DNA of 64,000 nt from the NCBI GenBank assembly GCA_047495785.1, contig JBLDXI010000042.1, positions 1,612,001-1,676,000 on the forward strand. Direction: 5' to 3'. Shown in pieces: positions 34,701 through 64,000 of the stretch (positions within the stretch are counted from its first letter, which is position 1; each line of letters begins with the position of its first letter). The position numbers and the translations under genes are program-made. Origin of the DNA: Lepidodermella squamata. Taxonomy: Eukaryota > Animalia > Gastrotricha. The notes beneath the pieces are model-generated. The model made no database searches. It was not told the origin of the DNA and saw only the letters and a list, made by a program, of their open reading frames with translations.

Positions 34701-35400
34701 GCGAATTCGATTTTAAATTGGCCGATATATCTGTCGATGACAGCTCAGCCAGGCGCCAACTTCTGGAGAAGCGAACTGTGGCGACTTTAAAGTCGATGAT
34801 CGCCGAAGCCCAAAGCAGTCACGCCGTACTGAGCCGAAAAAGGGCCAAAAAATCAGACTATGTGGAGGCTGCCATGGACTTGGGTCTGCGCTGCAATGAG
34901 GATGACAGCTCCGCCGATGACGCTGAAAACGCCCAAGTGGTTCTGAAATCCCTTGACAATGTCATCGCCCTTGGAAAATTACTTTTCAAAGCGGTGACTA
35001 ATCAAGTGAAGACATTGCCACCTGCCAGCGAATTTCGACGCTTTGAAGCGATGCTCTTCGATATGCGGAAGAAGCATACTATTTACTCTCATAGTAAGTA
35101 TCACCCGCTATTTCTTACGATTAAGTAATTTATTTCTTTGCAGTGATGGGTTCCCACGTGCACAGCCATCTGGCTGCTGGCCTTGACCTGGTCGCATTGG
35201 GCACTTCTATTGAGCGCGGCCATCGCGTACTCAAGCGCGTCCGCGATGCAATGTCGACGCAGCAAACCGGTGTGGTTACTGCGATCGACGTAATGAAATA
35301 CGAGAATAGGCGCCTATGCGCATTTATCTATGAAAAAAAGTTTAATATTATTGTCCACGAAAGCGCCGCATCTAGAATAATTGAACTGCAAAAACGCTGA
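28783..35400 (+). CDS. Transib/RAG1/Chapaev-type DDE transposase, 7 exons, ~808 aa, apparently intact
   Basis: Exons 28783-29172, 31799-32100, 32151-32313, 32722-33126, 34116-34460, 34529-35093, 35144-35400 splice in frame at GT-AG sites. Motifs: GRPATKRYQEL..RRKRRL, KIRLALDG, WSADVM, FCPLC, PDPLHML, YSHMMGSHV, SIERGH. Linkage of exon 1 is the least certain part. Confidence 0.75.
31104..31489. mobile_element. Tc1/mariner-type MITE in the transposase intron
   Basis: TA|CAGCGTGTCC-ACAAGTTACGCA ... TGCGTTACTTATGGGACACGCTG|TA. Confidence 0.8.
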
Positions 35401-41685: not shown

Positions 41686-42580
41686 ACCTAATATACCATT
41701 AACTATTAACTAGAACAGATAGAACTGTTTAATTGTGATTAATGACTTATTAATGATTGCGATCCAAGCTTATTAGCTGATCAATAAACTGCCCTATAGA
41801 ATTTGGGCACATTTCCACATCCACGGATATTCGCATTTGGCCTTTGAGATTCAGGAAACGGTGTGTGGTGAGCTCTGACCGTTATTTTTGTATGAAACAC
41901 AATTATTCGAGCGAGCACTGATCGCCAGAGTGCAGGATGAGCGTCCATCGTATGAAATAAATTTAGGCCGAATATTGGAACTTTGTTTCAGACTTCGGCA
42001 CCGTTTGGCGAATACGGCAATCCGATGTTGTCCTGAATCGAAATTATACCGAAGCTATTTTAGAAAGCTGTTAAGCCTACTTGAACTCGAGACACTTGCG
42101 GAATTGGGTGTTAACAAAATGTTCTCGAACTGATGAGAATTTATCTAGTAATAACTTGACCAAAACAACCCACGATTCAACCGAATTTGTCAATTGATGC
42201 AACCAATAAGTCTTCCGCCTGTATCGGTCATTTTAGTTTGATGTTTGATGAAATCAATTATAAAATGGAGCTTAATATCTCAAAATGCCCTCACTATTGT
42301 TGGTAACACAATCGGTCCGTTTAAGAATTGCCGCCACAGATTGGTCCGGTGTGGACATTTCCACTGTCAAAGAAGAATTTGAGGAGAATATTCGATTCTG
42401 GCAGTACATGTGTCCAACTTAATCGAGTATTAGCGGAAACAACCATAACGGACTTGCTCTGTATAGTCGGACACGCTATTTATAGCCTCACCAGGTTGCT
42501 GACAGGCACACGATTTGCTCCTCTTTTTCTCTGCGCGATCGCTTTTATTTCATTCATTTTATTTTATTCTATTTGAACAA

Positions 42581-45500
42581 ATGAAGCACTTATTTGCTGT
42601 CACACTGATTCTCAGTATCGTAGCCGATTCCCGTGGAATAGTAAGTGGCTTCTATTTTATCAACTCATCCACATCTGAAAGCAAACATATTGAAGGACCC
42701 GGAGCTTGAAGATGTTCTCTGGCAATTGAACGATGCGATTCTTGCAAATCACGGGCTTCCACCGGTAAATTTTCGAGAAATATCACGTTCAATGTGTAAG
42801 CTCATTTTTTCTAGGCTGATCGCAGTGTCCCACTTAAGCTATGCGGCGTTCCAGATCTGGAAACAGCGAAAGCAAGACTGAGGCGACAACTGGCAATCGC
42901 AGATGGCGAACCATTTGTGGCCGGGGTGAATTTGGCTTACAGTAAATGGGAATTCCCAATCAAATACAAAATCAGTCAATCATACAGTTAGTTTGTTTGT
43001 TTGCCTCGCTCCTTCTAGGCTAATTACTAGCTAGGCTATATCTTCCAAAAATCTTCTAAAATAGCTTATTTTGTAGCACTTGTTCAACGAGTAACAAGGT
43101 ATACCTCGATAGACTGACGTAGTCGTGCATTTTTATGTTTCCTTTCAATTATGATCATCATTATGATATATCAACTATGAGTATGATAGACTCAGCAGTT
43201 AACTGCAGTTGATATCGTTAGCGACGCGCCAAAACAACCACTTTACTATTTATAGATTTTATGAGGAAAGTACGTTCGAAATTAGGAAAAAATCGGTGTT
43301 CAAAAGGCCTAACGTACTTCACCATTACGTTAGGCGACTAAAAGTACGATCGAATGAGTCATCTAAGTGGTTGTTTTGGCGCGTCGTTAACGATATATGA
43401 ATTAAATTCGTTAGACTTTGCAATCGATTGTGCAGTATCCAGATGTGCGAAATTAGACGCCTTGTTTTTTTCCGAGGCCTGAAATTTTCAACCCTCCACA
43501 ATTTTCCCGAATTTCTACCCGCTTCAGCTACCTGGCGGCAATATCTTGCACGTCTTACTCGGCAACGGTGTCTTTGATCGTATCGCAGTTTTTCACGGGA
43601 CGATAAAAGTGCATTTATATCCCGTTCGCAGGTTTCCTTAGGCGCAACCGTTTTCCGATCTGGCACCGTTTCCGCTATCGTGTCAACAATTGCCCTATTC
43701 AATTCTTCAAGAAGTTGTTCATGTTCACCGCACTTGTCTGATGAGAAGGGGTAGCTTAGTCGTTTACGCAGCCCGTCCACGTTTTGAGTAATCCTTGCCG
43801 CATTCAATTGTTCAGCAATCGTTGGTTTTTCTGTTGTTACCATGTACCATGGCGATTCCTCGATGATCGCTTATATTCCTTCGTCCTTCGGTTGCTGCTG
43901 TGATCGTGATTTTTTTCGAACTAAAACTTGTACAGAAGTAGTCGAGCATTGTATTCGAAGCTGGCCGAGTTATTAAAGCTCAATTCTAGTCCAAGCGGAC
44001 CGATAACTCCCTTTGAAGTTGTCTTCATTGTCAATATTCATCAGATTTAGGTTAAAATCACCCCCGTTATACACGGTAACTATGTTAGCATATTCAAGTT
44101 ATAATGTCGCTGTTTTTATACTTTGATCGTAGCCACCGATGAGAAAGCAAACATCCGTGCAGCTATGGACCGCTGGGAAGAGGTTACATGTGCTCGATTT
44201 GTCGAAGATTCAAATCTCGCGGGGAATCAAATCGGCTTGAACATCTTCAAAGAATCAGGGTGAGTCATTTTTCAAGTGTATACTGAAAATTCAGCTATTT
44301 CGCCACATTTTCCAAGATGCTGGTCGTATGTTGGAAAATATGAAACAGAGAAACCACAAGACCTGTCGCTAGACGACGGCTGCACGGCGGTATTTATCAT
44401 TTCATGACTAAACTTTCGATTTTCGATTGAATACATTTCTCATTCTTCAGGTATTCATAGCAGCTCACGAAATCGGCCACGCTCTCGGAATGGTTTGTTT
44501 TCTTCTCTATATCGAGTGGCTTCATGTTAACCTGTGTGTCGTACCAGGAACACGAGCAATCGAGAACTGATCGCGATAACTACATCCGAATTCTCTACGA
44601 GAACATTCTACCGTAAGTTTAATTGAAAACATGTTTCAAATTTCCGTAATAATTTGTACTCGCATTATAGTTCCGATGCTTACAACTTTGATACTGTACT
44701 GACGGATGAGAATTACAATGTGTCGTACAATTACGATTCCGTTATGCACTACGGCTGGGACGCTTTCGCTAAAGCGGCGAACTTGCGAACCATGGAAACA
44801 ATTGACAAGCGATTCATGTACACTATCAATGAGATGAATTTTATCTCTTTCGGAGATGCGAAACGAGTTAATATCCGATACGAATGTGGTAAGTATGACA
44901 TCTATAATTTAGGCTCAAAATTAGGCGTAAAGATTAGAGATTCAATTTTCAGTTTAATTTGTAATATAAACTTATAAATGACTGAAAGCTAAATTTTTCG
45001 TGATAATACTCAATAACTTTTCCCATTTCGAATTCATCGTTATAACGTCTATCATAAATCTTATGTTTTAGCTAGGTTTTATTCTAACTTTCTGTCTTAC
45101 TACTTTCTCTCCTTTTAGTTGAAACTTTATGCAATGGCAAACCCCTTCCACAGCGCTGCCAGAATGGAGGCTATCAGAACCCAAATAACTGCTCGAAGTG
45201 CCTATGCCCGGATGGTCTAGGTGGCGATTTCTGTGAGACCTACGGCCCATACAAGGGTCCAGTTCCGTGCGGTGGTTACGTCGATGTAAAAGCTTGCAGC
45301 TACACTTCGATCACCTCACCAAGCTACCCGAATGCCTACGACAAAAATGCGGTTTGCAATTGGTGGATTAGAGCGGTAAAATCTAACATGAATTTATATC
45401 GAAAATTGAACGACTGACGTTTCAGCCGGCTGGTTCTGGATTAGTCTTCGCCTTCGAAAAAACGCCCGATCTTCCCAAAGAACATTATTGTAATAATTTG

Positions 45501-47729
45501 AAACTAAACTGATATATTGCATTTTTCTCTATATTTTACAGATGGGACGAGTTGCGGAGATTACGTTTCGATTCGTGATTTCAGCAGTGTTGACAAATCA
45601 CTGATGATGTGCTTAATGTTTTTTGCATCACGGATTGGGAAATGTATCTTCCATTTTTGACAGGTTTTGCACTGATAGCATTTCAAACGGTCGAGTGTAT
45701 TCAACTGACGAGAATCAAGCAATAGTCACACTCGGAACGCAGGGCTTCTCAAGCACCAGCACTGGGTTCAATTTGACCGTCTACGCAACGTGCCCGGGTA
45801 CAACGGCCAGCTCGCTCACCAAGGAGTGTCGAATTACCGAAAGTGGTCGCGACTATGAAGGCCTGAATGTCACTGCGTCTTCGTCGGGCCAAGCCTGCTC
45901 TCCATGGTCTAGCAAGTCAAACGTGAAAGATTTGCAACTTCCAATGGGCGATTTCAACGCTTCCGCGAGTGCGTGTCGTGCGTTCAACAATGAGGATAAG
46001 CCGGTATGCTATGTCACCCCAGATACTTACAATCCTTGCCCACTGGTCGACAAATGCCCAGCAGGTAAGTTCACTGTAGCTTTTTGGACCATCTACGCAT
46101 CGAACTAAAGTATCCTTACCTACTTGAAATAGTGAACCAATATTCTTGCGGTTTCGGTTAGAGGTTAGACGTTAGACATTAACAAATGCTTTAGCGGAAT
46201 TGGGGTCCAGTGATGGTGGAATAATTCGATAGTTTGTCCCCTCCTCGATCATTCCATTATTTGAAATCTGTTCGGGAATGTAACAATGCGTTTAACACTC
46301 TTCGATTATTCGATTTTCTGAAATATTTCTCTTTTTATTCTGGAAATAGCTTCATGTACCAACGCATGCCAAAACGGTGGAACATGCGTTGGCAAAGACG
46401 TTTGCAACTGCCCAGCAGGTTGGACCGGTCAAACCTGTACTACTCGTGAGTTCTGAAACAGCTTTTCGTAAATTTGGTGCCTAATTTTCAATATATTCAT
46501 AAAGCTCTGCAGAACACAACGGGAATTTCGACGAAATATGCGCGATGCTTCTTGCGAAGCACGGACGATTTATCGACATGCCGTGCGGCAATAGCTATCA
46601 GTAGCTGTCGAGAATTCGAGTACCAGGTAAGGCCCTACATTATATGGACTACGTGATTCTATAAGCTTCTTCTAAAATTTCTAGGGCGGTCGGACTTTTC
46701 CAACCTATCAATCTTGCGAAATGGGCGTAAGTTATTGCTTCGAATGAGCTTCAACATCGTAAGATTACTCTGCTAATTAAACAGGCTGTGAGCTACTGCT
46801 ATTCCCCTGAAACGGCTGATTTTACTTGCCGTATTGGTGCATGCAACAGCAACGAAAAACGGGTAAAATTGAAAGTTTTCAGCTAAATCTGATACCTGAT
46901 ACCTATATTCGATTGATTTTAGATCAAAATCTTCTCCAGCTCCAGATTTTTTGCTGCTGAGAATTTAATGGCATGCCGTAACCTGGCTTCACCGGTAGCA
47001 CCTCATTAATTAGCTAAACTCAGCGAGCCTATTGCCCTTTCTTTCTAGATGGATTACTATCGTTGTTCGAACTCAGATTTCACGATAAGAGCTTGCCGAC
47101 CAACTAAAGGCTGTGAGACTGGAGAGGTTAACTATAATATTTTGTCATGTTTCTAGTCATTTTGCCAACATTCTTCAAGGTCCAAGTCGGCGGGTATTTG
47201 GATCGAGCTAGCTGCCTTAGCGGTGAGGACTATCTCATCTTTCCAAGCTCAGAATGATCAAAGTATTTTTAGATGCTGAGGTTGATCAGCCTGTAGTTCG
47301 TTGCTACAAGAGATCAAATGGTAACTTCGAAACATGCCGACCCATTTGCCACAATGACGAATTCCAGGTAAAATATCTCTCTAAATTTTGTTCAAAATTA
47401 CAACTGATTTTTTTTTAATTTCAGAATGGCCCGACGTATTTCTTCAAAAATGTGGCTGTTTGTCTGAAAGGGGTAGAAAATTCCGCGAAAATCCTAGACA
47501 CGTTCCAGATTCGTAATTCGTAATTTTAGGGTGCCAGGCTGTGTAGGCGAAATCGGCGACAGAAATACTGCATTGGTTCGAATAGATCCTGTAAACAACA
47601 GGTAAAAATTCAGATTTCTTCTCATTGTATGTTTTTTTTATCCGTGATTTCGTGTGATAGATCAAGATTTTTGCATCATCGGACAATTTTGCTGACAATC
47701 TTGCAGCATGCAAAGCAGCCAACATATGA
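42581..47729 (+). CDS. Astacin copy 4 (astacin-EGF-CUB-kringle-EGF-5x Cys repeat), apparently intact
   Basis: [15 protein letters not shown]; HEIGHALGM|[10 protein letters not shown]; SVMHY; kringle ~45830-46060; TGA 47727-47729. Confidence 0.85.
43212..43396. mobile_element. Small MITE in an astacin copy 4 intron
   Basis: 32-bp TIR ATATCGTTAGCGACGCGCCAAAACAACCACTT with one mismatch. Confidence 0.75.
43400..43900 (-). pseudogene. Possible non-LTR retrotransposon ORF2 fragment (endonuclease-RT linker) in intron
   Basis: [16 protein letters not shown]....NSGKLWR resembles the LINE tether region; absent from paralogous introns. Confidence 0.45.
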
Positions 47730-48700
47730 CATTGATCTTGCAATTGTAATAAAGCAGCAAATCGAGTGACTATTTCCCTCATTTCCTCATTCTTTATTTA
47801 CAATTTGGCTGATATTGATTAGTGATTAGTAATGCTTCCTGAGCTTCAATTATTGTGATTAGCTCAAAAACAAAGATTGCACTGATATATATTTTCTCAG
47901 TAATAAAGTAAATCATCGCATAAGCCTGGAGATTTTTTGATCATTTTCGAACTTGGAAGGACTATTTTATGATCGAATGGTTTTTTCGGTCTTTTTGGTC
48001 AACAGTCTTTTGTGCGCAAGGCGGTAGGTGGTAGGTGGTGTAGAAGATGCAACTCTGGGAAAACCGACTTCGCGCCTTTGTTCGGTAAAGCAAATGCCTG
48101 GGTAGCGACGAAGCATTTGTACGTTGCCAAGTGTTAGTCTTAGTTGCTAGGGTGGCGTTGATTTTACTGGTTAGCCACACCCATAGCCGTACGTAGGCCC
48201 AGTCAACTATGTAAATTGGTAGCAAAGTCGAGACAGAATATCAGCAAATTTCCAACGTTTCAAGAACAGATAGCACAACTGCGATTAATGGCTTTCTCAT
48301 TCGAAACCTCATGTAAATACGTCTATTTCAATTTGTATGTCAAATAAGGACAAATAAAAAAGATTTCCGTTCGTTCAATGATTCGTATCACCGGCCTCAG
48401 TATTATTCTCTTTTCATGACTTTGACCCAATTATCGAACTGGCCCGGTTTGGACAACTTCACCTTCATAAAGAGAGAGAACGAGAAAATTGTTTCAGATG
48501 AACCAGCCGTTACATGTGTCCGATTAGTTTGAAAACCACGAGGGTTGACGAAAAAAATTATAACGGACTTGCTCTGTGTAATCGGACTCATGTAGTCATA
48601 GCTTTACCAGGTGACTGCCAGGCACACGATTTGGTTCTTTTCTTTTTTTTCTGCGCGATCGTTTTTATTTCATTCAATTTATTTTATTTTATTTGAAAAA

Positions 48701-51700
48701 ATGAAGCTGATACTTGCTGTTACACTACTACTCAGTTTCGTGGCCAATTCCCGTGGAATTGTGAGTGGCCACTATTTTATTAACCCATTCCCATCTAAAG
48801 CATGTATGTTTTCCAGGATCCGGAGCTTGAAGACGTTCTCTGGCAATTGAACGATGCCATTCTTGCAAATCATGGTCTTCCACCGGTACATTTTCGAGAA
48901 ATATCGCCATTAAATGTGTAATACCACTTTTTTTCTAGGCTGATCATAGCGTCCCACTGAAGCTATGCGGCGTTCCGGATCTGGAAACAGCGAAAGCAAA
49001 ACTGAGACGACAGCTGGCAATCGCAGAGGGCGAGCCATTGGTAGCCGGCGTGAAATCGACTGCCAATCTGTGGGAATTTCCTATCAAATACCTAATCAAT
49101 GATTCATTCAGTTAGTTGAACGGTTGTCATATTCTTATTTTTAGGGCCTTTTAGATTCAATATGGAACCAAAATTCCTGGTTTTGTAACAAAATTTGGAA
49201 AAACTAATCTAATAATTTATAGATTAACCCCCCTGATTCAGACACACCGAAATACATTTCAAATCCTTGGGCCTGAATCCTAATTAAAAATAATATTTTC
49301 TATGATCGATAATAGGGGCTTGAATTTGGATTTATTTTCATTACTCTTTGTATTGCTTTGTATTTTAATTCAAAATTCAATTAATGATTTTTTTTCAGTA
49401 GACTGGTTCAGTAGTTAAAAATAAAAAATAAATGAATAATTTATCAAAATGTAACCTTGAATTTTACCGAATCTGGTTTAGCCCCCTACAACTGCTACAA
49501 CTATCCTATTGCTTTCGAACTTAGTTGTAACCTGACTACTTGTATTATTTGATTGCAGCCGCCGATCAGAAAGCCAATATCCGCGCAGCTATGGATCGCT
49601 GGGAAGAGGCTACATGCGCCCGTTTTCTCGAAATTCCAGATCTCCCAGCGGATCTGAACGGCCTGAATATCTTCAAAGAAACAGGGTGAGTCATTTTCCG
49701 AATCTAATTATATTTGTTAGATACGCTATTTCGTGACTGTGCCGAAGATGCTGGTCGTCTGTTGGGAGGATTGAACTCGGGCAACGGCAAGATTTGTCTT
49801 TAGGTGAAGGCTGCACGGGGGTATTTAACATTTTGTTGAAAAGCTGTCCTTTAATTGAACCAAATGACTATTCACTCAGGTATTCATAGCAGCTCACGAA
49901 CTCGGCCACGCTCTAGGAATGGTTAGATATAGTTTCATTTTCGATTGCTTAGTATCTGATTGAGTGTCTCTAGGAACACGAGCAATCGAGAGAGGATCGC
50001 GATAGCTACATCCGAATCTTTTACGAGAACATTCAACCGTAAGTTCTGTGTTGAAAATTCTAAACATTAATGAGATGGTTTTCATATGCATTTAGTGGCA
50101 GCGCGTACGCCTTCAATACCGTAATCAACGATGAGAATTACAATCTATCGTACGTTTATGACTCCGTCATGCACTACGGATGGAACTCATTCGCGAAAGC
50201 TGAAGAATTGCGAACCTTGGAAACAATTGACAAGCGATTCATGTACACAGTAGGCCAGCAGAATTACATCGCTTTCGGAGATGCGAAACGAATTAATATA
50301 CGGTATAATTGTGGTAAGTAATGAAACTGCTTTGTGGACATTTTTCCAAATTTTAAGCTGGAATTAATTGAGAATCGTTCAAAAAATAGCATAAATTGTG
50401 CAATTTTAGACCTAACAATTCTTTCCTCATTTTCAAGTTTATTTCCAGTTTCACCTTTTTTATATCAATGAAGTTCATTGAAATATTCCTGATTACACTA
50501 TGAACCGCCGATTTCATTCCACTACGATGCTTGAATTCCCTCTTTTTAGTTGAAACTTCATGTAATGGCCAACCTCTGCCACAGCCTTGCCAGAATGGAG
50601 GCTATCAGAACCCAAATAACTGCTCTAAGTGCCTATGCCCGGAAGGTCTAGGTGGCGATTTCTGTGAGACCTACGGCCTATACAAAGGTCCAGTTCCATG
50701 CGGTGGTTACGTCGATGTGAAAGCTTGCAGCTACACTTCGATCACCTCACCTGGCTACCCGAACGCCTTCGACAAGAATACGGCTTGCAATTGGTGGATT
50801 CGAGCGGTAATTTCCAGACCTATTTGTTATTGACTTGTTTAAGCTCATCGTTTCAGCCTGCTGGAACTGGTTTGGTTTTCGCTTTCGAAAAGACACCAGA
50901 TCTTCTTGCCGATAATTATTGTAACAGCTTGAAACCATATATAAATCGTTTTTCTCAATGTTTTCTAGATCATACGAGCTGCGGAGATTACGTTTCAATT
51001 CGTGATTTCAGCAGTGTTGAAAAATCAGCAATGAGGTTGGTCAATTGTGGCCATGAGCTACTTTTCGATTCATCAATTTCTTCCAGGTTTTGCACTGATA
51101 GCGTGTCGAATGGTCGTGTGTTTTCAACTAGCGACAATCAAGCAATAGTCACATTCGGAACGCAGGGCTTCTCAACCACCAGCACTGGGTTCAATTTGAC
51201 CGTCTACGCCACGTGCCCGGGTACTACGGCCAGCTCGCTTACCAAGGAGTGTCGAATTACCCAAAGTGGTCGCGACTATGAAGGCCAGGCCATCAATGCG
51301 TCTTCCTCGGGTGAAGCTTGCTCTCCATGGTCTAGCAAGTCGAACGTAATAGATTTGAAACTTCCAATGGGTGATATTGCCGCATCAGCGAACACGTGCC
51401 GTGCGTGGAACAGCGAGGATAAGCCTGTATGCTACGTCGCCGACGGTTCTTATAAGACTTGCCCACTGGTCGAAAAATGCCCAGCAAGTAAGTTCATAGC
51501 AGTCTTTACAAGGGCCCAGAAAAGAAAGCATAAGGGCCCCCCTGTGGTTAGGCTTCGGGTCCCGAAGTAGGGACAGTCCCCCCGTCCCTCTTGTCTCTTG
51601 TCATCTTCGACACAGGTTCATTGCTCTTTGTATTGTAGATTGTACCAATGATTTCCTCATCTCTGTTAGAAATTAACAGCCGGTTTCGAAAGGTTTCGGA

Positions 51701-53261
51701 CAGGGTCTAGGGTCTAGGGTCTAGTGACAATAGCAGATCTGATTTGAAAATAGCCAATCTAATATCGACTCCAATTCGGGGAATCGAAATAAAAGCAAAC
51801 TTGATAGCCTCTAATAATAGTTATTTATCGAATCTTCCCTAACACTTGTTCAATTTTTGCACTATTTTTTTCGGAATAAGTTTCTTGTACCAGTGAGTGC
51901 CAGAACGGTGGAACTTGTGTTGGCCTAGTTTGCAGCTGCCCAGCTGGCTGGACAGACCCAGTCTGCTCAAGTCGTAGGTTTTCAATCAACGGTTCAGTTA
52001 GCTTTGTATTCGAATTTTTCCTTTTATTTTCACAGCTGTTGCTAATGATCCAGGTGATGATGGAGGCGCAGAAACTTCAACGAAGTATGCGCGATGCTTC
52101 TTGCGGAGCACGGACGATTACTCTACTTGCCGTGTGGCAACGCCTAATGGCTGCCGAGAGTTCGAGTACCAGGTAGGAATACCCCATTTTATTATTTCCT
52201 GAATCTAAAAAAGTATTTCAAAAATAAAGAGTCGGACTTTTTCAAGCTATCAGTCTTGCGAGAGAGGCGTAAGTCATTGCTTTGAATGCTACTACATATG
52301 AGTAACAGCTGTGCTAACTACATAGGCTGTGAGTTACTGCTACTCGCCCAAAACCTCCGACTTCATCTGCCGCCTTGGTGACTGCAAAAGCGGCGAAGAA
52401 AGGGTAATGTCGTTATATTTTATTGCTGAATGTATCTGAACAATTTTGATTAATTTCAGATCAAAATATTTTCCAACTCGCGATTTTTCGCCGCTCAGAA
52501 TTTAATGGAGTGCCGTAATCTGGCTACACCGGTACCAAGGGGTCTCTTATATGTGTTTAAGCTAAGCATTTTTCCAGATGAAATACTACCGCTGCTTCGA
52601 ATACTCGAATGTCACGAAAGTGGCTTGCCGACTTACAAAGACATGCATGCCAGGAGAGGTTGATTCGAATAGCCGTAGTCTTTATTTAATCTTTTCTAGT
52701 ATAGAAACGACGCGGTTGGTTTGTGGATCGAGCTAGTTGCCTATCGAGCTAGTGAGCAAAACATTGCTTCCCAAGCTCACAATAGTAAATTTCAATTTCA
52801 GATACATTCGCCGACCAGCCTGTGGTTCGCTGCTACAAGAAAACGAATGGAAAATTCGAAACATGCCGAGCTGTATGCCAAGAAGATGAGTTCCAGGTAA
52901 AAATTATTCCTAGAATTTTTCAAAATTACCAATAGTTTTTTATGATTTAAGAATGGCCCGACATACTTTTTCAAAAATCTGGCTGTTTGTCTCAAAGGGG
53001 TAGGAATTTGCTGCTTACGTTGACCATTAACGTTAACCATTAACCGTTTCAAAATGTTGAAATATCAGGGTGCCAGGCTGTGTAAGCGCAATCACCAAAA
53101 ATACTGCGCTGGATCGAATAGATCATGCAAGAAGCAGGTAAGCGTGGTAATTTAAACGCATTCCTAGCAAACCTATCCGTGTTTTCCTTTAGATCAAGAT
53201 TTTCGGATCATCGGAGCTATATTCCGACAATCTTGCAGCTTGCAAAGCAGCCGACACTTGA
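48701..53261 (+). CDS. Astacin copy 5, largely intact (possible splice-phase problem near 52740-52755)
   Basis: MKLILAVTLLLSFVA; HELGHALGM|EHEQSREDRD; SVMHY; EGF, CUB and kringle in ORFs 50531-51570; TGA 53259-53261. Confidence 0.8.
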
Positions 53262-54115
53262 AATTAGTTGGCGAATTTCGAAAGCGAATACAATCAAATA
53301 AAACTGTTCCTGATATATTTTGGCTGATAATTACTAACTTAAATGTTTTCTTAAGCTGCCAGTTTTTTGGTTTCCTTACGAATCTCTTCATTTCGCAGAA
53401 ATGCTGTTATATTTTCTTCTTCATGTATCAAATAATAAATCAAATATAAGAGATTTAGATCGGTTAGGACTTGTAGTATATCCGAATGCACTTGAGCTAA
53501 AAATCTTCTTGGTATGCAAGTGGCGGTGCAGAATTCTGCAGAATTCAGGAATTCTTAGTAACACTGAGAACGATATCGTTAAGTAGGCTACGGTTAAGAT
53601 TAAGTTTTTTAAATGGTTCAATTAGGCCACGGGTGATGGTGCCTCGGGCGCGAATGAAAGCCGATGGATTTGAGTTTGTAGACCTCGAGTAGAGGTACAC
53701 AACGCATGGATTGCCCTCTTCTCATCGTTCGTCTCCTGAAACTGGGTGGCCGACTTTAAAAAATTAAAGTTCGAAGTTCTAATGATTTCAGAAAGCTGAA
53801 ATTCTGCTGTCTGAGGAGTCGAGCTAAACACAAAGAAAAGCGATCATTTTCTATCTTTCCCGGCAGCATTTATCATTTTTGCTATTTATGTCTTCGGTTA
53901 GAACAATACAGTGGACATTACATGTAAATAATGAGGCTAAGATAACGATAAAAACAGCCGTAGGCTGATATATTTCTCCGGAAAACAACAAAGTAAATAG
54001 TAAATATCATTCATTTGGGGGCTGAATTCCAAGTGCAGTTCCTGTTGTCTTCATAAAACAACTCGTAGCGGGGGACACCCACGCGTAACTCATAATCTAA
54101 GGCGAAGCTTAAATA

Positions 54116-54197
54116 CTGCTTTCTGAGGAGTCGAACCATCGCGAGATGAGATCATTCAACTTCTGTTGACGCATCACAACCACTCGACCATTCACAC
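54116..54197 (-). pseudogene. tRNA-Ser-like pseudogene or tRNA-derived repeat head
   Basis: A-box TGGTCGAGTGG at positions 8-18, B-box GGTTCGACTCC, long variable region, AGA in a shortened anticodon loop; acceptor stem unpaired. Confidence 0.55.
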
Positions 54198-54593
54198 CTC
54201 ACAAGTAGTATTAGTTAGTTCGAGTAAAAAATGCGTAAATTAGTTGGGAATGAAAAGTGAATGAAAAATCGGTACTTTTTGCAAATTTAGGTTGAAAAAT
54301 CGGTACATTTTGAAAATTGTGGATGGAAAATCGATAATTAAGGTGGATTGGAATGAGAATCAATTTTTTGCAGGAGCTATCACTAATAAAATTATTTCAG
54401 ATCTGGAACTAGCCGCGGTCAAGTCGAATTGATTATCTCTCAGCAGCAAGTCAAAATAATTGAGGAAACAACTTTGCGAACACGAAACTTTATTGAATAA
54501 TTGCAGGTGAATAAAATGAGAACCGATAATTTTTTTTTCAGAATAATTGAGCAAAAAACACAGTAGATGAGAAAAGTGTACAGAAGAAAGACA

Positions 54594-56070
54594 CTACGGC
54601 TCGTATGTTATTAGAGAATCAAAATTTAGACTGGTGTCTTCCAGAAGCGGTCGGTAATCTTCGATGGACGACGTATTTACAAGAACAATGTCATCGAGGG
54701 TGATGACGTCTTCAGGAGAAGGTCGACGCGGAAACAACAATAACAAATTCGGGGAGCTAGGTGTATAGGTAGGCGAAGTAGGTTCATAGGTAGGTGAAAT
54801 AGGTAGATAGGTAGGTGAAATAGGTGAAGGTTCATGGTGAAGGGAGACAGTGTCAAATTGAGGAGAAGGAGGTAAGTATCGTAGAGAAACGGGTGAGTAA
54901 TAAGCAGTCGAAAAGTAGGACGAGTCGCAGCTAGTCGGGGAGCCGCCTGCCGACTCGCCAGCCGAGTAGCCGCTGCCCGCGTAGGTGCTCAGCGTGTCAC
55001 CGCCGGTCGAGATGCTGGCCGTGTAGGTGCTCAGCGTGTCACCCTCGTCCGAGTCACCGTCGTCCGTGGCGCCGCCGGTCGCGTTGTCGGTCGCGCCGTC
55101 GTTCGAGGCGCCGCCGGTCGCGTTGTCGGTCGCGCCGTCGTTCGAGGAGCCGCCGGTCGCGTTGTCGGTCGCGCCGTCGTTCGAGGAGCCGCCGGTCGCG
55201 TTGTCGGTCGCGCCGTCGTTCGAGGAGCCGCCGGTCGCGTCGTCGGTCGCGCCGTCGTCGCCGGCCGCGTCGATGAGCCAGTCGTGAGGCGGCGGCAGGG
55301 GGACAACGCCGGGAGAGTCACCGCGGGGCAGCGCCACAAAGAAATCGTCGACCGGCGTGGCGATGGTATCGTGGTCGGCAAAGACTTGCTCGATATCGAC
55401 GACCGGCAGAACAACAACTCCGTTTATGAAATCGTCGAGAGGGAGCTGGATTTCGCCGAACGGCGCGGCGTCGATATCCGGATAGTAAAACAGGTCTTCT
55501 TCCCCGTAAACCAGTGCGAATAAAGGGGCCCAATCTTCGTAATCGAAGAGGGAGCTGTCGCTCCTGGGCCTGTCGGCAGGGTCGATGATCGTCACCGGAT
55601 CGTCATCGAGGAGAACCGAGGCCATCGCGGCGGCTATCTCGGGCACGTCATCGTCAGCGTACAACTCGCCGTCGCCGCCGCCGCAGGGCAGATCGCCAGT
55701 AGGAGAGACAGAGCGCGGCGAGCCAGGCAAGGCGGCATCGTGCTTGGTGGGCGAGTTTTCAACCGAAGCAGCGTCGCTGTTGGCGGAAGAGTCCTCGCCG
55801 CGGAAATCGAGGTAGTCGTAGGTACGCTTCTCGGAATTTGCGACATGATCTGTAGAAAAATTAAAAAAAATTAAGATAATGAGACGAAATAAATAATCGC
55901 AACTAACCAAACATTAGCCGCTGAAAGCAATCGAGAGGATGGATGCATAAAATGCGGCAGGGCGTCGCTTTCTTAGCCGCAATCGAACGGCGCGAGTTCT
56001 TTAACCACGCCGGCGCGTCGTTCGGGACGACAGGAATGCGGTTCGTAACCAATGTCGGAATGACACGCAT
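54594..56070 (-). CDS. Acidic low-complexity protein with 13-aa repeats and Pol II CTD-like heptads (2 exons: 56070-55908, 55849-54594)
   Basis: 438-aa ORF joined in frame to an upstream ATG exon by a 58-bp GT-AG intron; GC-rich coding sequence. Confidence 0.7.
55066..55260. repeat. 39-bp coding tandem repeat (about 5 units, GGSSNDGATDNAT)
   Basis: Unit GCGTTGTCGGTCGCGCCGTCGTTCGAGGAGCCGCCGGTC. Confidence 0.92.
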
Positions 56071-56237
56071 CGCTCAGAAAAAATTAACACGTCTAAAAAT
56101 TGCAAATAAAGACAGTTATTAACAGTCCGTGAGATTTTGTTGCCATTAAATACGATCAATAAAAAAAACGAGGGCGATAGAAATGGAAAAGGGCGAGACG
56201 CGAAAAATTAAGGAGGAACGAGAATTAATAGAAAAAA

Positions 56238-56588
56238 TCACAGCCGGGCGCGTTGCAGCTCAGCGAAGACATCCTCAGCATCGATCGGCGCAAAGCCATT
56301 GAGCAGCGAAGCGACGAATTCGTCCAACGATTCGAAGGGATCATACTCTTCACCCAATACCAGAAACTGTAAGTCGGCGTAGCCAAAGAAATCGTCATCG
56401 TCGTTCGTGGTGCCGCCGTCGATCATCGTGCCGCCGTCGATCATCGTGCCGCCGTCGTCGCCGGCCGCATCGATGAGCCAGTCGTGAAGCCGCGGCTGCG
56501 GGACAACGGGAACATACTCTTCATCGAATACCTGACGCCATAAGTCGGCGTAGTCATCGTAATTCAGATCGTCAGCCAGGTCGGACAT
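56238..56588 (-). CDS. Small acidic protein paralogous to the neighbouring acidic protein
   Basis: Shares HDWLIDAAGDDG and D/E-W/F-rich modules with 54594-56070. Confidence 0.65.
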   Translation of the reverse strand: MSDLADDLNYDDYADLWRQVFDEEYVPVVPQPRLHDWLIDAAGDDGGTMIDGGTMIDGGTTNDDDDFFGYADLQFLVLGEEYDPFESLDEFVASLLNGFAPIDAEDVFAELQRARL

Positions 56589-56913
56589 ATGAGGTAGAAA
56601 TCACGTGAAAGTCTAATAAAAGCAAAAGGCAATCCGTTGGAAATTGCGAAGCCAGTTTTAAGATCAAATAACGACGAGTCGAAAGATACGAAAAAACGAG
56701 GACGATAGTCATCAGGGTTGCTGAGATAATAGGCTTCGAAGTTTACGAACGAAAATATAAATTTTGAAAATTTCTTGAAAAATGAGCCGCGGCCGACACG
56801 GTTGAATAAAAAAGCGCGAGTTGCGAGCATTGTTGCCCAATGGCGCAGAAAAATCAACACGTGAAAGTATATAATAATTTCGAATAAAATTCAGAAATTC
56901 GCGAAATTTGCGC

Positions 56914-57283
56914 AGGGTATTTATACCCTCCGCAGGCAATCAATCAACAGGTAGAATTGTAAATGTCAAATTTTCCCTGTCAAAAATCTGTCAAAAATTC
57001 GAACATAATTCAAGAAATCTTGAAGGAAACGTCAAAAATTTGAAGTTTCAATGGTTACAAGGCAATTAAAAAGTCAGATTAGGCTTAAATTTCTTGAGCA
57101 ATTTGTCGAAAATCTGTCAAAATGTCGAATTTCAAGTTATAAAACTGCCAAGACGTCAAATTTCACGAAGTTAAACTGCCAAGATGTCAAATTTGTCGAA
57201 AATAAAATGCCAAAATGCCAAGAATTTTACAAATTTAGATTTATTGCTGAAATATGATTGATTGGGTCTAAGGGTATATAAGC
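56914..57283. promoter_or_regulatory. Putative divergent promoter region with two TATA boxes and a TGTCAA-type repeat array
   Basis: AGGGTATAAA on the minus strand (within 56914-56929) and AGGGTATATAAG on the plus strand (57271-57282), between divergently oriented genes. Confidence 0.45.
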
Positions 57284-57375
57284 AGGGCGCGGCGCACACT
57301 TTCAGCACTCGTACAGAATTCCTTACAGATTTCACGCCACTATTCCACCTTAAAGTTCCCATATACTTTCTACCC

Positions 57376-58655
57376 ATGAATCAGTTTGGCAATTTTGGGT
57401 TGGGAAACATCCCGCCTAATAACTTGCAATTCCCGGCTAATAACACGCAGTTCCTGGCTAATAACATGCTATCATCTCAACAAGTGGACACGGCTCGACA
57501 GGTAAAAAATTTGCGAATGAGACAACTCCGAAGTTGAATAATGCATTTAAATGAGATGCATTATTCAACTTAAAATGCAGAAGAATACTGCTAAAGCGAA
57601 CATTTTATTATGAACGCTCGTTACCGTTCATCGACCGCTACATGTGTAAAATACTTTAATCTCATGCTGCGTCGATCAACGGTACGGGCGATCGTATAAT
57701 AAAATACCGCCACTCGTTATATCTCGCACCTAGCGCGCGCGCGTGTAATAAAGCTAATCCGGTATTAACGCTGTTCGATACCGTTGTGGTCCTGATCAGC
57801 GCTCATAACGGGTTCAACAAAGCAGAAAGGCGCAAATAAAATCATCAACGAAGCGCGCCGGCACATAATAACGCAGCTCGTTACAGTGTAACAGTGTACA
57901 AACGGGCGAATCGCTGATGATGACAAGTGCGAAATTATATAACGGCGCACAAAAATAGCCGCAATAAATTTGACATAAAAAGTGCGCGCGCGCGCGAATA
58001 AAAATAAGCGCAGCGCTGCCGAGCATCATCAGCATCATCGAATAACGCGCGCGCAATACCTCGCACGTTTGCGAAAATATAAAAAAAAATTCAAACTATG
58101 CCGTAATATAAGGAGTGATGTAAATTTCAGGAAACTATTGAATGGGCGCCGTTCGACTCGTCGTTGTCTACTAATGCTCGAGCTATGGATAAATTGGCCA
58201 GCTTCAAGTTTACGAATAATTACAAGGCTATTCGCTATGTGTGCACTGACAACAAATACGTGTTTTTTCTGGGGAAAATAAATTCGCCGGATCCGCACAG
58301 CCCGATGGTGCAGCCGGGTAAAGGTCTGTGGATGACAGAACTCGAGGTACGACAATTGCTGGCCGGCATCAAGGGCAATGCAAACTGGCTTCGAACTCTA
58401 AACTCAAGTCTTCAAGCTGCCGGAGCCAATCGAGAAAATCTCGGGGTTCAATCAGTCGAATCGTCCAATAATCACATCATCAACAACCTTCGCTGGTCTT
58501 TTTACGCACCAAAGAATATCTTGTTCATTGATTTGCGCAGGTATACGCCGCAGCCAGATAATAAGTATAGGGCGATGAAAGATGGCATCTCAATTCCGCA
58601 GTCAATTTTTTCGCAATTAGAGTCGATTTTATGCCAAGTTCTTGAAGGCATCTGA
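57376..58655 (+). CDS. PC4/Sub1-like ssDNA-binding protein, probably two PC4 domains (exons 57376-57501, 58131-58655)
   Basis: LFIDLRRY..YRAMKDGISIPQSIFSQL fits the PC4 signature; weaker N-terminal copy PGKGLWMTELEVRQL; in-frame GT-AG splice. Confidence 0.7.
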
Positions 58656-59069
58656 GGATTTTAGTCATCCTTAATTGAGTTGCTGATTAATTCTAGCAAT
58701 CATCAGCCGACTGCGAATACAAATCGCAGGATTATCGCATTAATATTACTAAATTTAATCGAACCTATTATCATGTTACTTCAATCAATTGAAACTATTA
58801 TCTGGTTTATAGCGAATTTTAACTATTTACCCTCATTTACGAGACCACAGTTCGAGTCGTACGATGGGTCGAACTAGGATCTTGATATTATCGCTCTCAA
58901 TTATCTATTAACCAAGCATTACCCCAATAAATACAAAAAATCCCAAAATTAACGCAGTGTCTAACATTTTAGGAATTTAAATATTATTAGAAATTGAGCT
59001 ACATCGCCCGACACAGGTAAGCGAATACATTTTTCAACTAATAGATGCTCTAGAATTAAAGTAATAGCC

Positions 59070-62000
59070 ATGGATGAAGAGTTCAAACTACTGCGCTATG
59101 AAAAAGTTAGCGAACGCTTTGGCTTATCGACATATGAATTTTTAATCCAAGCCGGCGGTGGTGAATCTTCCGCCGAAACGGATTCTCTCCAGCAATATGA
59201 AAAAATTCAAAACTATTTTGAAAAAATAGTTGATCGGCTTCGATCAAAGTTTGACCCGGATAGCATGTGCCGGATATCTATTCACAACTCGGAGCTTTCG
59301 TATCCGATATCACTGGGCTATTATAGGCTAGCAATTTTATCAGGGGCTATCATAACCAATCATGTGGAACGAATCGCTCAGTCTAAGCGAGGATTAATTT
59401 TTTCATCCACTCCTTTCCGAGTAGAAGCAAACATGGTGTTTCTCGATAAAATGAGGGATGATGAATCCAAGTATTTAGGATCTGGCCCTGTTAGGCATCG
59501 AAAGAAACTCGAGACAAGCGCCTTGAAATGGCTATCAAATCTTAGTTCTTACATCCCTGTTGACAACGCAGATAATCTGTGTTTATTTTACGCTGTGGTT
59601 TTGGGCATGAGCCACAGCAATTACATAGCATATGTAGCCGATAAAAACAAGAATTTACTTCGATATTTGGAATCTCCAGAATTGGAGCAAAAAGGACTAG
59701 AATATATGCATCTGAAAAATGACAAGGCTAGACTGCGAAAGATGGCTCGGGATCTGTGCCGAAAATCCGGCTACGACCCCGAATCTAATCGATCATACGG
59801 TGTAGCTGACCTTCCTAAAATAATGCAATTTTTTCCGGATCATCAAGTAATAGTTTATTCTCTATCAGACAATCGGGTCGTATACATGTGGCCTGATAGC
59901 AGTGCTTTTTCTGACAAAGATCCGATTCGAGTATACTTGATATGGATCCATCCCAAGTTGATGGCTCCAATGTACAGCAGGGTTGGGCATTACGGCGCTC
60001 TCAAGAATTTGAGTCAAGTAAGCCATGCGAAAACGTACTGTAAACTGTGCTTTGTACCTATATCAAGATCAAATCATAATTGCCTATATCGATGTTACGC
60101 ATGCCATCAGCGATTAAAACCAGCTTTAAGTTCGAATAATGGGATAGTGGATACTCCGAGATGCCTTAATAGGTGTTCCGATGAGTCAACAATTAGTTGT
60201 CAGAACTGCAATCGATTTTTTTTCGGAATTAATTGTCACAATTACCACATCAAAGCTAAGATATGTGACAAATTTGTTCGATGCAAATCTTGCGGGCAAA
60301 TTAAAACTCGAATTAGGATGGCTGAGCACAAATGCTCTGGTCGCAAGTGTGTGGTTTGCAAATCAAAGCTGGAACCTGGCCATCAATGCTATTGGACAAG
60401 GCCAAAGCTTAAGGAATCAGCTGCTCCGAATCGCGTATTATACTTTGACATCGAATGTATGCTCTTGGATAGTGGGGAATTTCATGCAAGCACCGTTATC
60501 GGCGAATTCGCATGCGATGCGTGTTCAGAGCGTGAAATACGCGAATATCCCGCGGACGGAGGTTCAATCTGCGAAAATGAGTGCTCTCAGCTATTTTTCT
60601 ATCACGAATCTGATGCATTCGCGAAATTCATGCGATATATATGCTGCGATCGGTATAAGGATCTGACGTGCATTTCTCATTACGGCGGTAAGTGATTAGG
60701 CTCAAAAAACGTGAAAAATCTAGGCTGTAATTTGTTTAGGCAAATTTGATACGATTTTTGTTCTGCGCTACGTTCAAGAACAGAATATTAAATTTGAGAC
60801 TATAGAGAGGGCGGGAAGAATATTGGAGCTAAAAATAGATCGTGGACCCCGGTAAGAGTGCAAATTTGTAAAAAAAAAAATAGATTTCAAAAATTGGGAA
60901 AAAATAGATTTATTGATAGCTACAACTATTTTTTGACAAAATTGTCCTCTCTTCCGGCCGCTTTCGGCATTGACGGCTTGGAAAAACTTAGCTATGCTCA
61001 TAAACTGCATACCCGCGAAAATTTGTTCAAAGTTTTTCCCGAATGGCCTGGGCTTGAAAAGTACGATATCAGCGGCATGTCTGAGAAAGAAATCGCCAGC
61101 TTGGAAGATTTCATCAGGCTGAAGAGGCAAAATCGCGAAAGTTACGATTTTAAATCGGAAACTTACCGGTATTGCCGACAAGATACCGTCATTCTACGAA
61201 TAGCAACTGGCCGATTCAAGAAAATGATACAGGAATTATCAAAGTGTGATTACGCACCGAATGGTATCAATTGCTTCAACTACCTAACACTGTCGTCCAT
61301 CTCCCATATTATTTATCGAGTAGGTTAAGAAAAAAATGGAGTAATCTACCTTAAAAACATTTCTGGTCACCCTAGATTAAGTACATGCTGCCAAATTCAA
61401 TTCGAATATTCAATCCTCAAGGATTGGTGCTCAGAGACGTCGCAAGTCAAGAAGCTCTGCAATGGCTATATTATTACTCTAAAATTCATAATGTGGAGAT
61501 TGAATCAGCTTTGAATGGCAGTGAAATTAGGCTGAAAATGTCTGATAAATCTGAGCTCAAAGCTGACGGGGTAATTCGCAACAAGTCAACAGGGATGGTT
61601 GAGCGGGTACTCGAATACTACGGTGAGCTCTGAACATCATTTTCTCAGATAGATTTACGCTTTCGGTTCTAGGCTGCACCGTTCACGGGCATCCTCGTTG
61701 CGTCCCTGAAAATAGGTACAACTTTTTGCTGCGAAAAACGTATGGGGAGCTTGCTTATCAAACGGCTAAACGCGAAGAAAAGCTTCGCCAGCATAATTAT
61801 CAAATCACCTCGATTTACTCTTGCGAGTTTAAGCAAATTCTCGCGAATGACCCAGAACTTGCTTCGACATTGCGAGCTGCGGTTTCAATAGTACCGCCGA
61901 TTAAACCACGGTCAGCGCTATTGGTAAGACTGCTGAAATTGCGATAAATATATCAATAGAAAATAATTTTAGGGTGGACGAACGGAGGTATTCAGGTGTT

Positions 62001-63554
62001 ATTTTGCTAGAGATTCAGCGACGAGTCTTCAATATGTGGATATAAATTCCATGTATCCATACGTTCTGTGTAGCAAACAGTTTCCGTGCAATAACATCTC
62101 GGCACAAGTATTAAGGTGGCGATTGAACGACGAAAAACTGAGAGCAAAGTTTTTCGACGAAAATGACCCAGCATTTGGCCTAGTTTCTGCGAAGTGTTGT
62201 CCGAATCCCAGCCTAATCGTGCCATGTTTGCCTTATAAGTCCCCCGATGACGATCGCCTGGTTTTTATCAGTTGCAGAACATGCTATCTGGAGAAAAACG
62301 TGACGACTAGATGCAATCATGACATGGATCAGCGCGCAATTTCCGGAGTTTGGACCAGTGAGGAGCTTCGCATGGCTGTTGTACAATTCGGTTATAACTT
62401 GGTCGAGGTATACGAAATATGGCACTTTCCAGACCGTAGCAACTTGCAATTCAGAGAATTCATTCTCTCGCTTCAAAAATTGAAGCTTGAAAACACTGTT
62501 CTTGCTCCAACAGTTGACGTCGAGCAATACGTCACCGAATGTCGGGAAAGGTACGGAATCGAGCTCGACCGGCAAACCATGCTGTCGCCGAATGCTTCGA
62601 TGAAACAGATTTCCAAGATCCTTCAAAATAGGTAGGTCGATTAAACAATCTTGAAATTAACCCTAATTTATCTCTCAGCTTCTACGGTCGCTTTTGCCTA
62701 CGAGCAAATAATTCCGTGGTGAAATATTTGGACTCGCCAGAACAGTTGATCGAGCTTTTTGAAGCTCCAAGCAAGGTTATTCACACAATTCAGCCAGTAG
62801 GACCAGATGACGAGCACCAAAAAGTCCGCGTTTCATATTCAGACGCTCCAGAATATGAACAGCCATGCGCTACCAACTCTGAAATTACAGCATCCTTTAT
62901 AACTTCTTACGCAAGAATGAAACTTTACGAGGAGGTTCGCAATAATTGGACTAAACGAATTTCAAGCTAATTAACTTTGATTTCAGATGGCCAAGCTGGG
63001 TTCCAGACTTGTATACTGCGACAGTAAGCAAATTCGCTACCTAAATTTCGTAGAATTTTGATAATCTTGTATTACGCAGCCGATTCGTTGATTTACACGC
63101 ACCAAGAGGGTGAATACAAAATTCCAGAGAGTCCATTTCTGGGAGACTTCAAGTCTGAATTGAGCGAGGGAGAATTCATTGAGTCTTGGGTAGCGATTTC
63201 GCCAAAATCCTATTCATTTGTCTCCAACTTGAGGTATAGAATTAATTTTTAGACTTGTTTTTTTTTTAATTAATTTCTTTTAGAACTGAACTCAAGTTTA
63301 AAGGAATAACCCAAAACTTGGCGGGGAAACGGTTGACTCACGAATCTCTAATTAAGCTGCTAACCGACTACCTTAACAATTTTGCTGCTGAAAGTGCGAT
63401 AACTGTCGATCAGACCGTATTTCGTAGGCGTCACGTTCCAGCATCCGTAACTCTTGAAAATATTGAGAAAACAGTATCCCCTCACCTTAATGACAAACGA
63501 ATATTTGATCCTTTGTCATTCACCTCTATCCCTTACGGATATCTTCCTCATTAA
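59070..63554 (+). CDS. Protein-primed family B DNA polymerase (Maverick/Polinton type), 10 exons
   Basis: ExoI YFDIEC; ExoII HYGG|KFD; ExoIII YCRQD; VSR-like insert ADG..EYYG|CTVHGH; GGRTE; motif A DINSMYP; motif B KILQNS|FYGRF; motif C YCDT|DS; KFKGI; C-terminal PYGY. Confidence 0.92.
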
Positions 63555-63598
63555 AATAATAATACGATTTGATCGCTTTCTCTCGTAGATTTTAGAAA

Positions 63599-64000
63599 AT
63601 GACAAAAAGTATCGCATCGGAGCGTTTAGCGCCTGAGAGCAAGGCCTTGTACGAATTTATCGAAGACGAGGTTACCTGCAGCATCTGCTTGGGAATAATG
63701 ACTTCTCCCGTCTACCTAACAAGTTGTCATCACGTCTATTGCGAATCCTGCCTATGCCGATGGGGCGAGAGATGCCGCGGTTCTGATGCTCGATCTCTTA
63801 TATTCAAAAGAGCGACTTGTCCCAAATGTCGAGAGTTTTACTCGCTGTTGGACATCAATCCTGGACCTGGTGTCGTCGAGCGGCTAGTTTCGCGCATGCT
63901 TTTCAGTTGCATTTATGAAAAGTATGGTTGCTCAGTGAAGCGTGACCATTGGGGCATCAGGGCTCATCAAAGGATCTGCAAGGAGAAAGGAGCTGCTAGT
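63599..64000 (+). CDS. RING-HC plus TRAF/SIAH-type zinc finger protein (putative E3 ligase), runs off the window
   Basis: CSICLGIMTSPVYLTSCHHVYCESCL..CPKCR, then CIYEKYGC..HQRIC; missing from the ORF track because the window ends before a stop. Confidence 0.82.
   Translation, partial: MTKSIASERLAPESKALYEFIEDEVTCSICLGIMTSPVYLTSCHHVYCESCLCRWGERCRGSDARSLIFKRATCPKCREFYSLLDINPGPGVVERLVSRMLFSCIYEKYGCSVKRDHWGIRAHQRICKEKGAAS

Follow-up and report, generated by a model that had tools for sequence, protein, structure and literature searches.

We analysed a stretch of 64,000 nucleotides of the Lepidodermella squamata contig JBLDXI010000042.1 (the window). Its end is the left arm of a young, multicopy Maverick/Polinton element with a sharp edge to host DNA, and the DNA polymerase B gene (PolB) of this element is predicted to be cut by nine host-type spliceosomal introns. 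With moderate confidence, we favour a reading in which the arm combines the nine-intron PolB with a PC4-like replication gene and with two disordered acidic scaffold proteins that would act on host transcription. A protein bearing repeats and the intron load are the unusual features, whereas most other parts have precedents. The original prediction for the locus had proposed one host-manipulation module, made up of the acidic genes, the PC4-like gene, a RING gene and the OTU-like domain of PolB.

The left terminus of the element is the AGTAGT at position 54204, which precedes the span of the original prediction (54594..64000); PolB starts 5 kb downstream. AGTAGT is the commonest Maverick end motif, and (AGT)2 ends are described (PMC8097293). 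The motif begins a left terminal inverted repeat (TIR; 54204..54281, no strand assigned), 78 bp of which are identical between the ends and which is likely to continue imperfectly to about 54298. In DNA run X1, a 78-bp contig corresponds exactly to 54204-54281 at a depth of 362, about twice the 161-178 of the element body in the same comparison, and a second contig matches to 54298 and diverges beyond; together, these are what a terminal inverted repeat would give. The flank contig ends at 54231. Depth is about 22 in the host-side contigs (52318-52820, 53343-54231) and 161-218 in the element contigs (54252-55100, 55211-56439, 56428-60709, 60735-64000), i.e. 7-10 times the flank depth, contig depth being a loose guide to copy number. 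The last of these contigs extends about 4.6 kb past the window end. A second run, X2, gave short pieces only. Because all open reading frames (ORFs) are on deep contigs, all genes named here lie inside one multicopy element. Both the AGTAGT terminus and the location of the acidic genes within the TIR-bounded element, as originally predicted, are thereby borne out. Terminus, inverted repeats and multicopy state are shared with Mavericks/Polintons (polintoviruses; Alpha adintoviruses, which have an OTU and a pfam03175 PolB; PMC8502044, PMC11071308), as is the presence of accessory genes upstream of PolB. For Mavericks, TIR lengths of 100-1500 bp have been quoted (bioRxiv 2023.08.22.554363), and the TIR here falls below that range.

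The gene for the protein-primed PolB (pPolB; 59070..63554, plus strand) appears as fragments in a plain ORF listing. Removal of nine GT..AG segments, with the phase carried from exon to exon, yields ten stop-free exons with an unbroken frame of 1338 codons plus stop. The predicted introns, all on the plus strand, are at 60688-60739, 60852-60907, 61320-61375, 61623-61672, 61924-61972, 62632-62678, 62935-62986, 63024-63079 and 63234-63283. They are 47-56 nt long, mostly AT-rich and in no case divisible by three, and the upstream exon ends in G at eight of the nine junctions. Two exons match PF03175 above the Pfam cut-off. In comparison with a profile of 75 full-length pPolB proteins, the ten exons follow one another along positions 94-1319, no gap exceeding eight positions (exons 1-5: 94-552, 557-588, 594-722, 724-788 and 796-876; exons 6-10: 878-1089, 1093-1172, 1174-1185, 1187-1232 and 1240-1319), the match of exon 8, which has only 12 residues, being non-significant by itself. 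Searches of Pfam and the PDB gave no match to a VSR nuclease domain in PolB. Exons 4-5 align to the corresponding profile region, presumably the VSR insertion region of the pPolB2 named in bioRxiv 2023.08.22.554363.

Maverick core genes have been described as intronless (PMC8097293; bioRxiv 2022.07.12.499685), in contrast to the nine introns predicted here. No description of an animal pPolB split by introns was found in the literature; subscription papers were largely outside this search, and gene maps given only as figures may hold more. We also compared other pPolB loci. They come from the top matches of an intronless query (of 580, 80 were kept), a choice that biases them against introns. 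Extra DNA within PolB occurs in 19 of 78 loci. Ten junctions between separate ORFs were inspected, and six of these, in five loci, had clean in-frame GT-AG solutions, so that 5 of the 78 loci carry one or two predicted introns (L031, L032, L036, L059 and L069, in each case within conserved motifs). Three of these introns are in the NSFWG motif, a few codons from intron 6 of the window and at a different base. Shared intron positions were ruled out, as none of the six introns coincides with any of the nine. That the nine introns stem from recent introners was likewise rejected, since they resemble one another no more than shuffled sequences do (277/300); introners are known in dinoflagellate Polinton-like elements (PMC12166617).

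The amino-terminal part of PolB has the layout expected for the family. A model of residues 1-328 reached a score of 82 in the predicted local distance difference test (pLDDT). Residues 17-127 align to the little finger of Pol kappa and Pol IV (Z 6.5-7.3, VIA-align), and the predicted terminal-protein domain (59118..59450, plus strand) would thus have a fold like that of Y-family little fingers. Residues 147-316 are closest in fold to OTU domains (best match: Z 9.7, root-mean-square deviation 4.2, 141 aligned residues, VIA-align). Foldseek with the amino-terminal part of PolB gave nothing at E<=0.001. The vOTU domain (59508..60017, plus strand) has Cys171 and His307, both invariant in 64 aligned sequences. 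The OTU-like character of PolB, as first predicted, is confirmed by these residues and by the fold matches, while the nine introns were absent from that prediction. A terminal protein followed by vOTU is the standard Polinton pPolB layout, in which cleavage of the terminal protein has been proposed as the task of the vOTU (PMC11071308), and OTU is present on both adintovirus PolB classes (PMC8502044). The order of terminal protein, vOTU, exonuclease and palm, with intact Cys and His, is shared with Mavericks/Polintons. Judged by the model, the OTU of PolB is the family standard and provides no evidence for a special module; by analogy, self-processing by the vOTU is likely.

Between the TIR and the PC4-like gene lie two acidic genes on the minus strand. 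The main exon of acidic gene 1 (54594..55849, 417 codons) is the only stop-free frame of six. An ATG-to-stop call (54594-55625) is too short, as no stop interrupts the frame up to an acceptor at 55850. There, a 58-nt intron is predicted (55850..55907, minus strand; GTTAGT..CTACAG, 22% GC), within which copies differ by a 2-nt indel, preceded by a predicted first exon (55908..56070, minus strand) of 54 codons, basic and phase-compatible with the main exon, with a provisional start. An AATAAA is found on the minus strand at 54489-54494, beyond the gene. Protein 1 consists of an acidic-hydrophobic amino-terminal part, 13-residue G/D/T/S/N repeats encoded by a 39-nt tandem repeat (5.2 copies, 55057..55258, minus strand), and a heptad tail rich in S, P, T and Y; it also has three motifs resembling SUMO-interacting motifs (SIMs). 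Acidic protein 2 (56238..56588, minus strand; 116 residues, again the only stop-free frame) is paralogous to protein 1. It contains an internal duplicate of a YADL..EEY block and an FFGY motif after four Asp. The two genes share a 59-nt block of 92% identity, and gene 2 has a 66-nt internal repeat.

The composition of both proteins is activation-domain-like. Asp and Glu make up 18% (ORF1) and 26% (ORF2) of the residues, Lys and Arg about 3% in both. Trp, Phe and Tyr account for 8% (ORF1) and 13% (ORF2); both proteins that had been predicted as acidic and studded with Trp and Phe do exist, and the latter description suits the second better than the first. A rule for activation domains (acidic/W-F-L) is satisfied by 48 of 379 tiles of protein 1, 40 of 78 of protein 2 and 8 of 4429 from 46 host-side frames. 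The GC content at third codon positions is 0.69-0.70 in the acidic genes versus 0.40-0.52 in PolB and the PC4-like gene. The FFGY of protein 2 recalls the TND-interacting motif, a helix followed by an acidic linker of 8-16 residues and FxGF (PMC9987994), but differs from it by a longer linker and by Tyr in the final Phe position.

The tail of protein 1 contains seven degenerate heptads with one two-residue insertion (54747..54899, minus strand), which resemble RPB1's carboxy-terminal domain (CTD). Scored against YSPTSPS, the CTD consensus, Ser5 is kept in 7/7 units, Pro3 in 6/7, Pro6 in 5/7, Tyr1 in 4/7 and Ser2 in 1/7. Three YxPxSP(T/N) units stand in register within the array, and the best single unit has five of seven positions. 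The last three heptads have 13 identities to the consensus in 21 positions, a value equalled in none of 5000 shuffles. Of 25 PDB matches, the 15 best were without exception chains of RPB1 or peptides of the Pol II CTD, with E-values inflated by the repeats; the Pfam RPB1-repeat family has no match in protein 1. The presence of CTD-like heptads above chance, part of the original prediction, is thereby substantiated. Tyr1, Pro3, Ser5 and Pro6 in a seven-residue register are common to both sequences. Unlike RPB1, the acidic protein has only seven degenerate units, none of them perfect, and no polymerase attached; by its sequence the array resembles a CTD yet falls short of one. A 21-nt tandem unit (54758-54825) overlaps part of the array, and the last three heptads consist of this repeat. 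Synonymous codon changes occur at Ser5 and Pro6 in the last heptad units. These features suggest that the acidic proteins are likely to be unfolded and likely to act on host transcription, and for the heptad-bearing protein itself a transcriptional role is plausible.

Relatives of the acidic proteins were sought in several ways. Protein 1 has no Pfam or PHROG family, Atlas gave no usable match, and scans of viral contigs with single proteins revealed no relatives. The heptad array is present in none of 6531 ORFs from 105 loci, six of which ORFs have a single YxPxSP. Among the accessible supplementary sequences of PMC11071296, six heptad hexamers had only two single matches, in a hexon. The literature gave no Maverick description of a CTD-like protein or a viral CTD mimic, with the same restriction as to subscription papers. 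Co-occurrence of this gene set in other elements was not found: acidic genes and heptad array occur in none of the 105 loci. Neither acidic protein contains LxCxE.

The PC4-like gene (plus strand) is transcribed away from the acidic genes. A predicted first exon (57376..57501; 42 codons, rich in Asn and Gln), downstream of a TATA-like site at 57275, would be joined in phase 0 across a predicted intron of 629 nt (57502..58130; GTAAAA..TTTCAG) to an ORF of 174 codons (58131..58655; 156 residues from an internal ATG). Within the intron, copies differ by four indels and seven substitutions. The carboxy-terminal half of the protein fits the strand-strand-helix signature of the PC4/Sub1 family (PF02229; human PC4, phage T5 homologue). 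Atlas returned PC4 clusters at 0.87-0.89 with low recognition, which we treat as a lead only. A lone match among cluster representatives was an Ig-repeat protein, a false positive. A tandem two-repeat structure was non-significant (542/2000 shuffles), a degenerate amino-terminal repeat being visible by eye only.

PC4 recurs next to PolB in other elements. We scanned with Pfam 391 of 457 selected ORFs (at most 700 residues long and within 5 kb of PolB) from 68 Maverick-type loci. PC4 was found in two loci, directly after PolB in both (L072:6373-7350 and L101:3585-4472); these two proteins are related and have a carboxy-terminal Cys/His module, and L072 also encodes a NADAR domain. The same scan revealed TBP in two loci (L060:7139-7729, Pfam E 9e-46; L073:8299-8868, 5e-24, both on pPolB-bearing contigs) and BIR, a weak RING and a HECT fragment in one each. 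The supplementary protein file of PMC11071296 contains at least 35 PC4 labels, and the 24 inspected are all on adintovirus contigs; PC4-labelled ORFs are thus a shared trait, although PC4 is unmentioned in the main text of that paper. No occurrence of the terms tested was found in the supplement of PMC8502044, as far as accessible, and in PMC11662393 'PC4' labels a cluster and does not mean the protein. No description of a PC4 gene in Mavericks, Polintons or adintoviruses was found in the literature open to our search, figure-only maps possibly differing. In PMC7549692, the homologue from phage T5 is described as a factor of DNA replication, and PC4 domains as unwinding DNA without need of ATP. 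Because PC4 recurs next to PolB, and by analogy with T5, binding of single-stranded DNA during replication of the element is the more likely role of the protein, rather than transcription.

A RING (C3HC4) gene follows PolB on the same deep contig and continues past the window end (63599..64000, plus strand). It matches PF00097 above the Pfam cut-off (E 1.8e-7), with TRIM RINGs as best PDB matches. Of the RING-TRAF gene originally predicted, the RING part stands; the TRAF part has no Pfam match, and a Cys/His pattern like that of the SIAH/TRAF zinc finger was seen by eye only. Ligases of the TRAF/SIAH type combine a RING and a TRAF zinc finger with a MATH/SINA domain. For a MELD virus a TRAF-like gene has been described, and for adintoviruses IAP homologues (PMC8502044).

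Differences between copies were classed for 37 substitutions and eight indels inside the element, among those listed (40 of 213 substitutions and 12 of 40 indels); one of the 37 came from a separate contig comparison. All eight listed indels (P about 7e-5) and 24 of the 37 listed substitutions are non-coding, although non-coding sequence makes up only 30% of the span. In PolB, eight listed differences are synonymous and one is non-synonymous; in the PC4-like gene, the numbers are two and one. Both acidic frames are open across copies.

In our proposal, host Pol II would transcribe the genes of the element and the host spliceosome would remove the introns, which would imply nuclear expression. 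The vOTU would separate terminal protein and polymerase by cleavage, which has been proposed for Polintons in general, and in protein-primed synthesis with strand displacement the PC4-like protein would coat or open the single-stranded DNA. Encoded in a variable GC-rich zone by the TIR, the acidic proteins may recruit host factors of transcription and SUMO, or soak them up, by means of acidic-hydrophobic patches, Ser-Pro heptads and SIM-like motifs. The RING protein would be an independent ubiquitin-ligase accessory, and acidic, PC4-like and RING genes would be separate acquisitions rather than a single dedicated cassette.

Several observations weigh against this proposal. The depth data come from run X1 alone, which may be the source of the window assembly itself, and the sequence read ends at 64000, the further marks of a Maverick (protease, packaging ATPase, retroviral-like integrase, capsid genes, both major and minor, right TIR, target-site duplication of 5-8 bp) being expected beyond it. 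Splicing of PolB and expression of the genes are predictions from the sequence. The PC4 assignment is tentative: the three PDB matches at E<=10 are all PC4 chains (E 0.5-1), but the score of the ORF against PF02229 (E 1.5e-4, 21.6-22.7 bits) is below the family cut-off of 25, and the single-sequence model is poor (pLDDT 37). No true homologue of the protein was found by word search or among cluster representatives, and it gave no significant alignment with the PC4-like ORFs of L072 and L101. In tblastn against the 105 loci, nothing was found at E<=0.05 for the acidic proteins, nor for the PC4-like and RING proteins. The shuffle values for the SIM-like and FFGY motifs (0.002 and 0.005) are optimistic, these motifs having been picked post hoc. 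The sole listed coding change between copies of acidic gene 1 is non-synonymous (none synonymous), and the duplicated acidic blocks differ mostly non-synonymously (synonymous to non-synonymous 3:6 and 0:11), so that neither the listed copy differences nor the duplicated blocks give a signal of purifying selection on the acidic genes. The copies are too young for such selection to show.

The integrated early-gene cassette of the original prediction, in which acidic activators, CTD-like tail and PC4 coactivator drive or redirect host Pol II while RING and OTU tune ubiquitin, is in our view unlikely. Acidic activators bind human PC4, and here the acidic genes and the PC4-like gene diverge from one intergenic region. 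Activation-domain-like composition, heptads matching RPB1 and the location of all genes inside the element also fit it, and the TBP genes at two other pPolB loci indicate that such elements acquire transcription factors. However, the OTU is a core part of the polymerase, PC4-like genes stand by PolB in loci without homologues of the acidic proteins, the RING gene is on the far side of PolB, Ser2 is nearly absent from the heptads, and the combination recurs in no other locus. Since the OTU is standard, PC4 is recurrent and replication is the simpler explanation for both, the case for one conserved, E1-like cassette is weak. A far-reaching variant, a spliceosome-dependent Maverick with its own early unit, would join a CTD mimic, its Ser5 a target of host CTD kinases, fused to a SUMO-binding acidic activator, a second activator and a viral PC4, which together would pull initiation, capping and splicing factors onto intron-rich genes; we regard it as speculative and rather improbable. 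A slightly better, though still low, probability is given to the acidic ORFs being fast-turnover cargo of tandem duplication, acting as SUMO/ubiquitin or kinase decoys or simply selfish, with the CTD likeness a by-product of a duplicated Pro-x-Ser-Pro phosphorylation motif. Both ORFs consist largely of 18-, 21- and 39-nt repeats, a random duplicated 7-mer from the region is CTD-like (at least four of seven positions including Tyr1) in 2.8% of trials, and the three SIM-like motifs and the missing selection signal agree with this. The heptad register, however, spans seven units and reaches past the recent 21-nt repeat, and invariant Ser5, the synonymous changes at Ser5 and Pro6 and the open frames across copies also speak against mere turnover. 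Finally, that PolB is a decayed copy with intron-like breaks, and its neighbours host or chance sequence, is very improbable. Mavericks are described as intronless, and gene modellers take insertions in dead copies for introns (PMC8097293), but all nine breaks have canonical ends and their removal restores one frame. A contig collapsing other copies keeps the structure with mostly synonymous differences, and all ORFs are on deep contigs.

Known systems place the favoured reading, a nine-intron PolB with separately acquired neighbours, in context. The gene set had been considered unfamiliar in Mavericks, which, within the literature searched, holds for the acidic and heptad genes; early-gene-like 'Oncoid' ORFs upstream of PolB in adintoviruses and MELD viruses (PMC8502044), the TRAF-like gene and the PC4 labels are precedents for the remainder. 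Adenovirus E1A and the Oncoids are also small acidic motif-bearing proteins encoded near the genome end, upstream of PolB. The Oncoids are defined by LxCxE, whereas the acidic pair has no LxCxE, PxDLS, paired CxxC or sequence homology and carries CTD-like heptads instead. A similar GC-rich zone of a few kb at the left TIR, with poorly conserved, intron-bearing genes, is found in nematode Mavericks (Widen et al., bioRxiv 2022.07.12.499685). Their cargo is a WASP protease or a KRMA kinase instead of an acidic low-complexity protein, and their next core gene is the integrase instead of a PolB that itself bears introns.

Further repeats accompany the element. Its insertion site lies in, or next to, a short repeat of very high copy number (54094-54203, summed depth 1900-5000 in run X1). 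A 55-bp piece between acidic gene 2 and the PC4-like gene (56693-56747) matches many diverged contigs, which suggests that the element contains part of a different high-copy repeat. Tandem repeats with 31-nt units are found separately at the inner edge of the TIR (54261-54333) and upstream of the PC4-like promoter (57110-57213); CACGTG is present at two sites, 56602 and 56858. A second subfamily that could be used for a selection test is hinted at by a diverged contig of 742 nt (depth 55), which matches where acidic gene 1 starts and in the end region of gene 2 (56016-56072 and from 56182).

The first 53 kb of the window are animal-like, with candidate host introns of 43-88 nt. They contain a tandem family of at least five to six genes with astacin, CUB and kringle domains (1-9400 and 37700-53350), the element being just downstream of the last copy, and a C-type lectin domain exon (10850-11368, minus strand). 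Several open frames without Pfam match at 31700-35200 resemble pieces of a spliced transposase-like gene, and a weak inverted repeat pair (31456-31490 / 33666-33700) is nearby.

If the heptad protein were a functional CTD mimic, it would represent a mobile-element route to host transcription, none of which we found described. The PC4-like gene is a testable candidate for a Polinton single-stranded-DNA-binding protein. The cross-genome pPolB search of a nematode survey needed a 650-residue match and a 900-residue ORF (bioRxiv 2023.08.22.554363); Maverick surveys built on long ORFs miss intron-split elements of this kind. A nine-intron polymerase in a young multicopy lineage would mean that such elements can be wholly reliant on splicing by the host, and the gain of introns by a virus-like genome may be tested on it.

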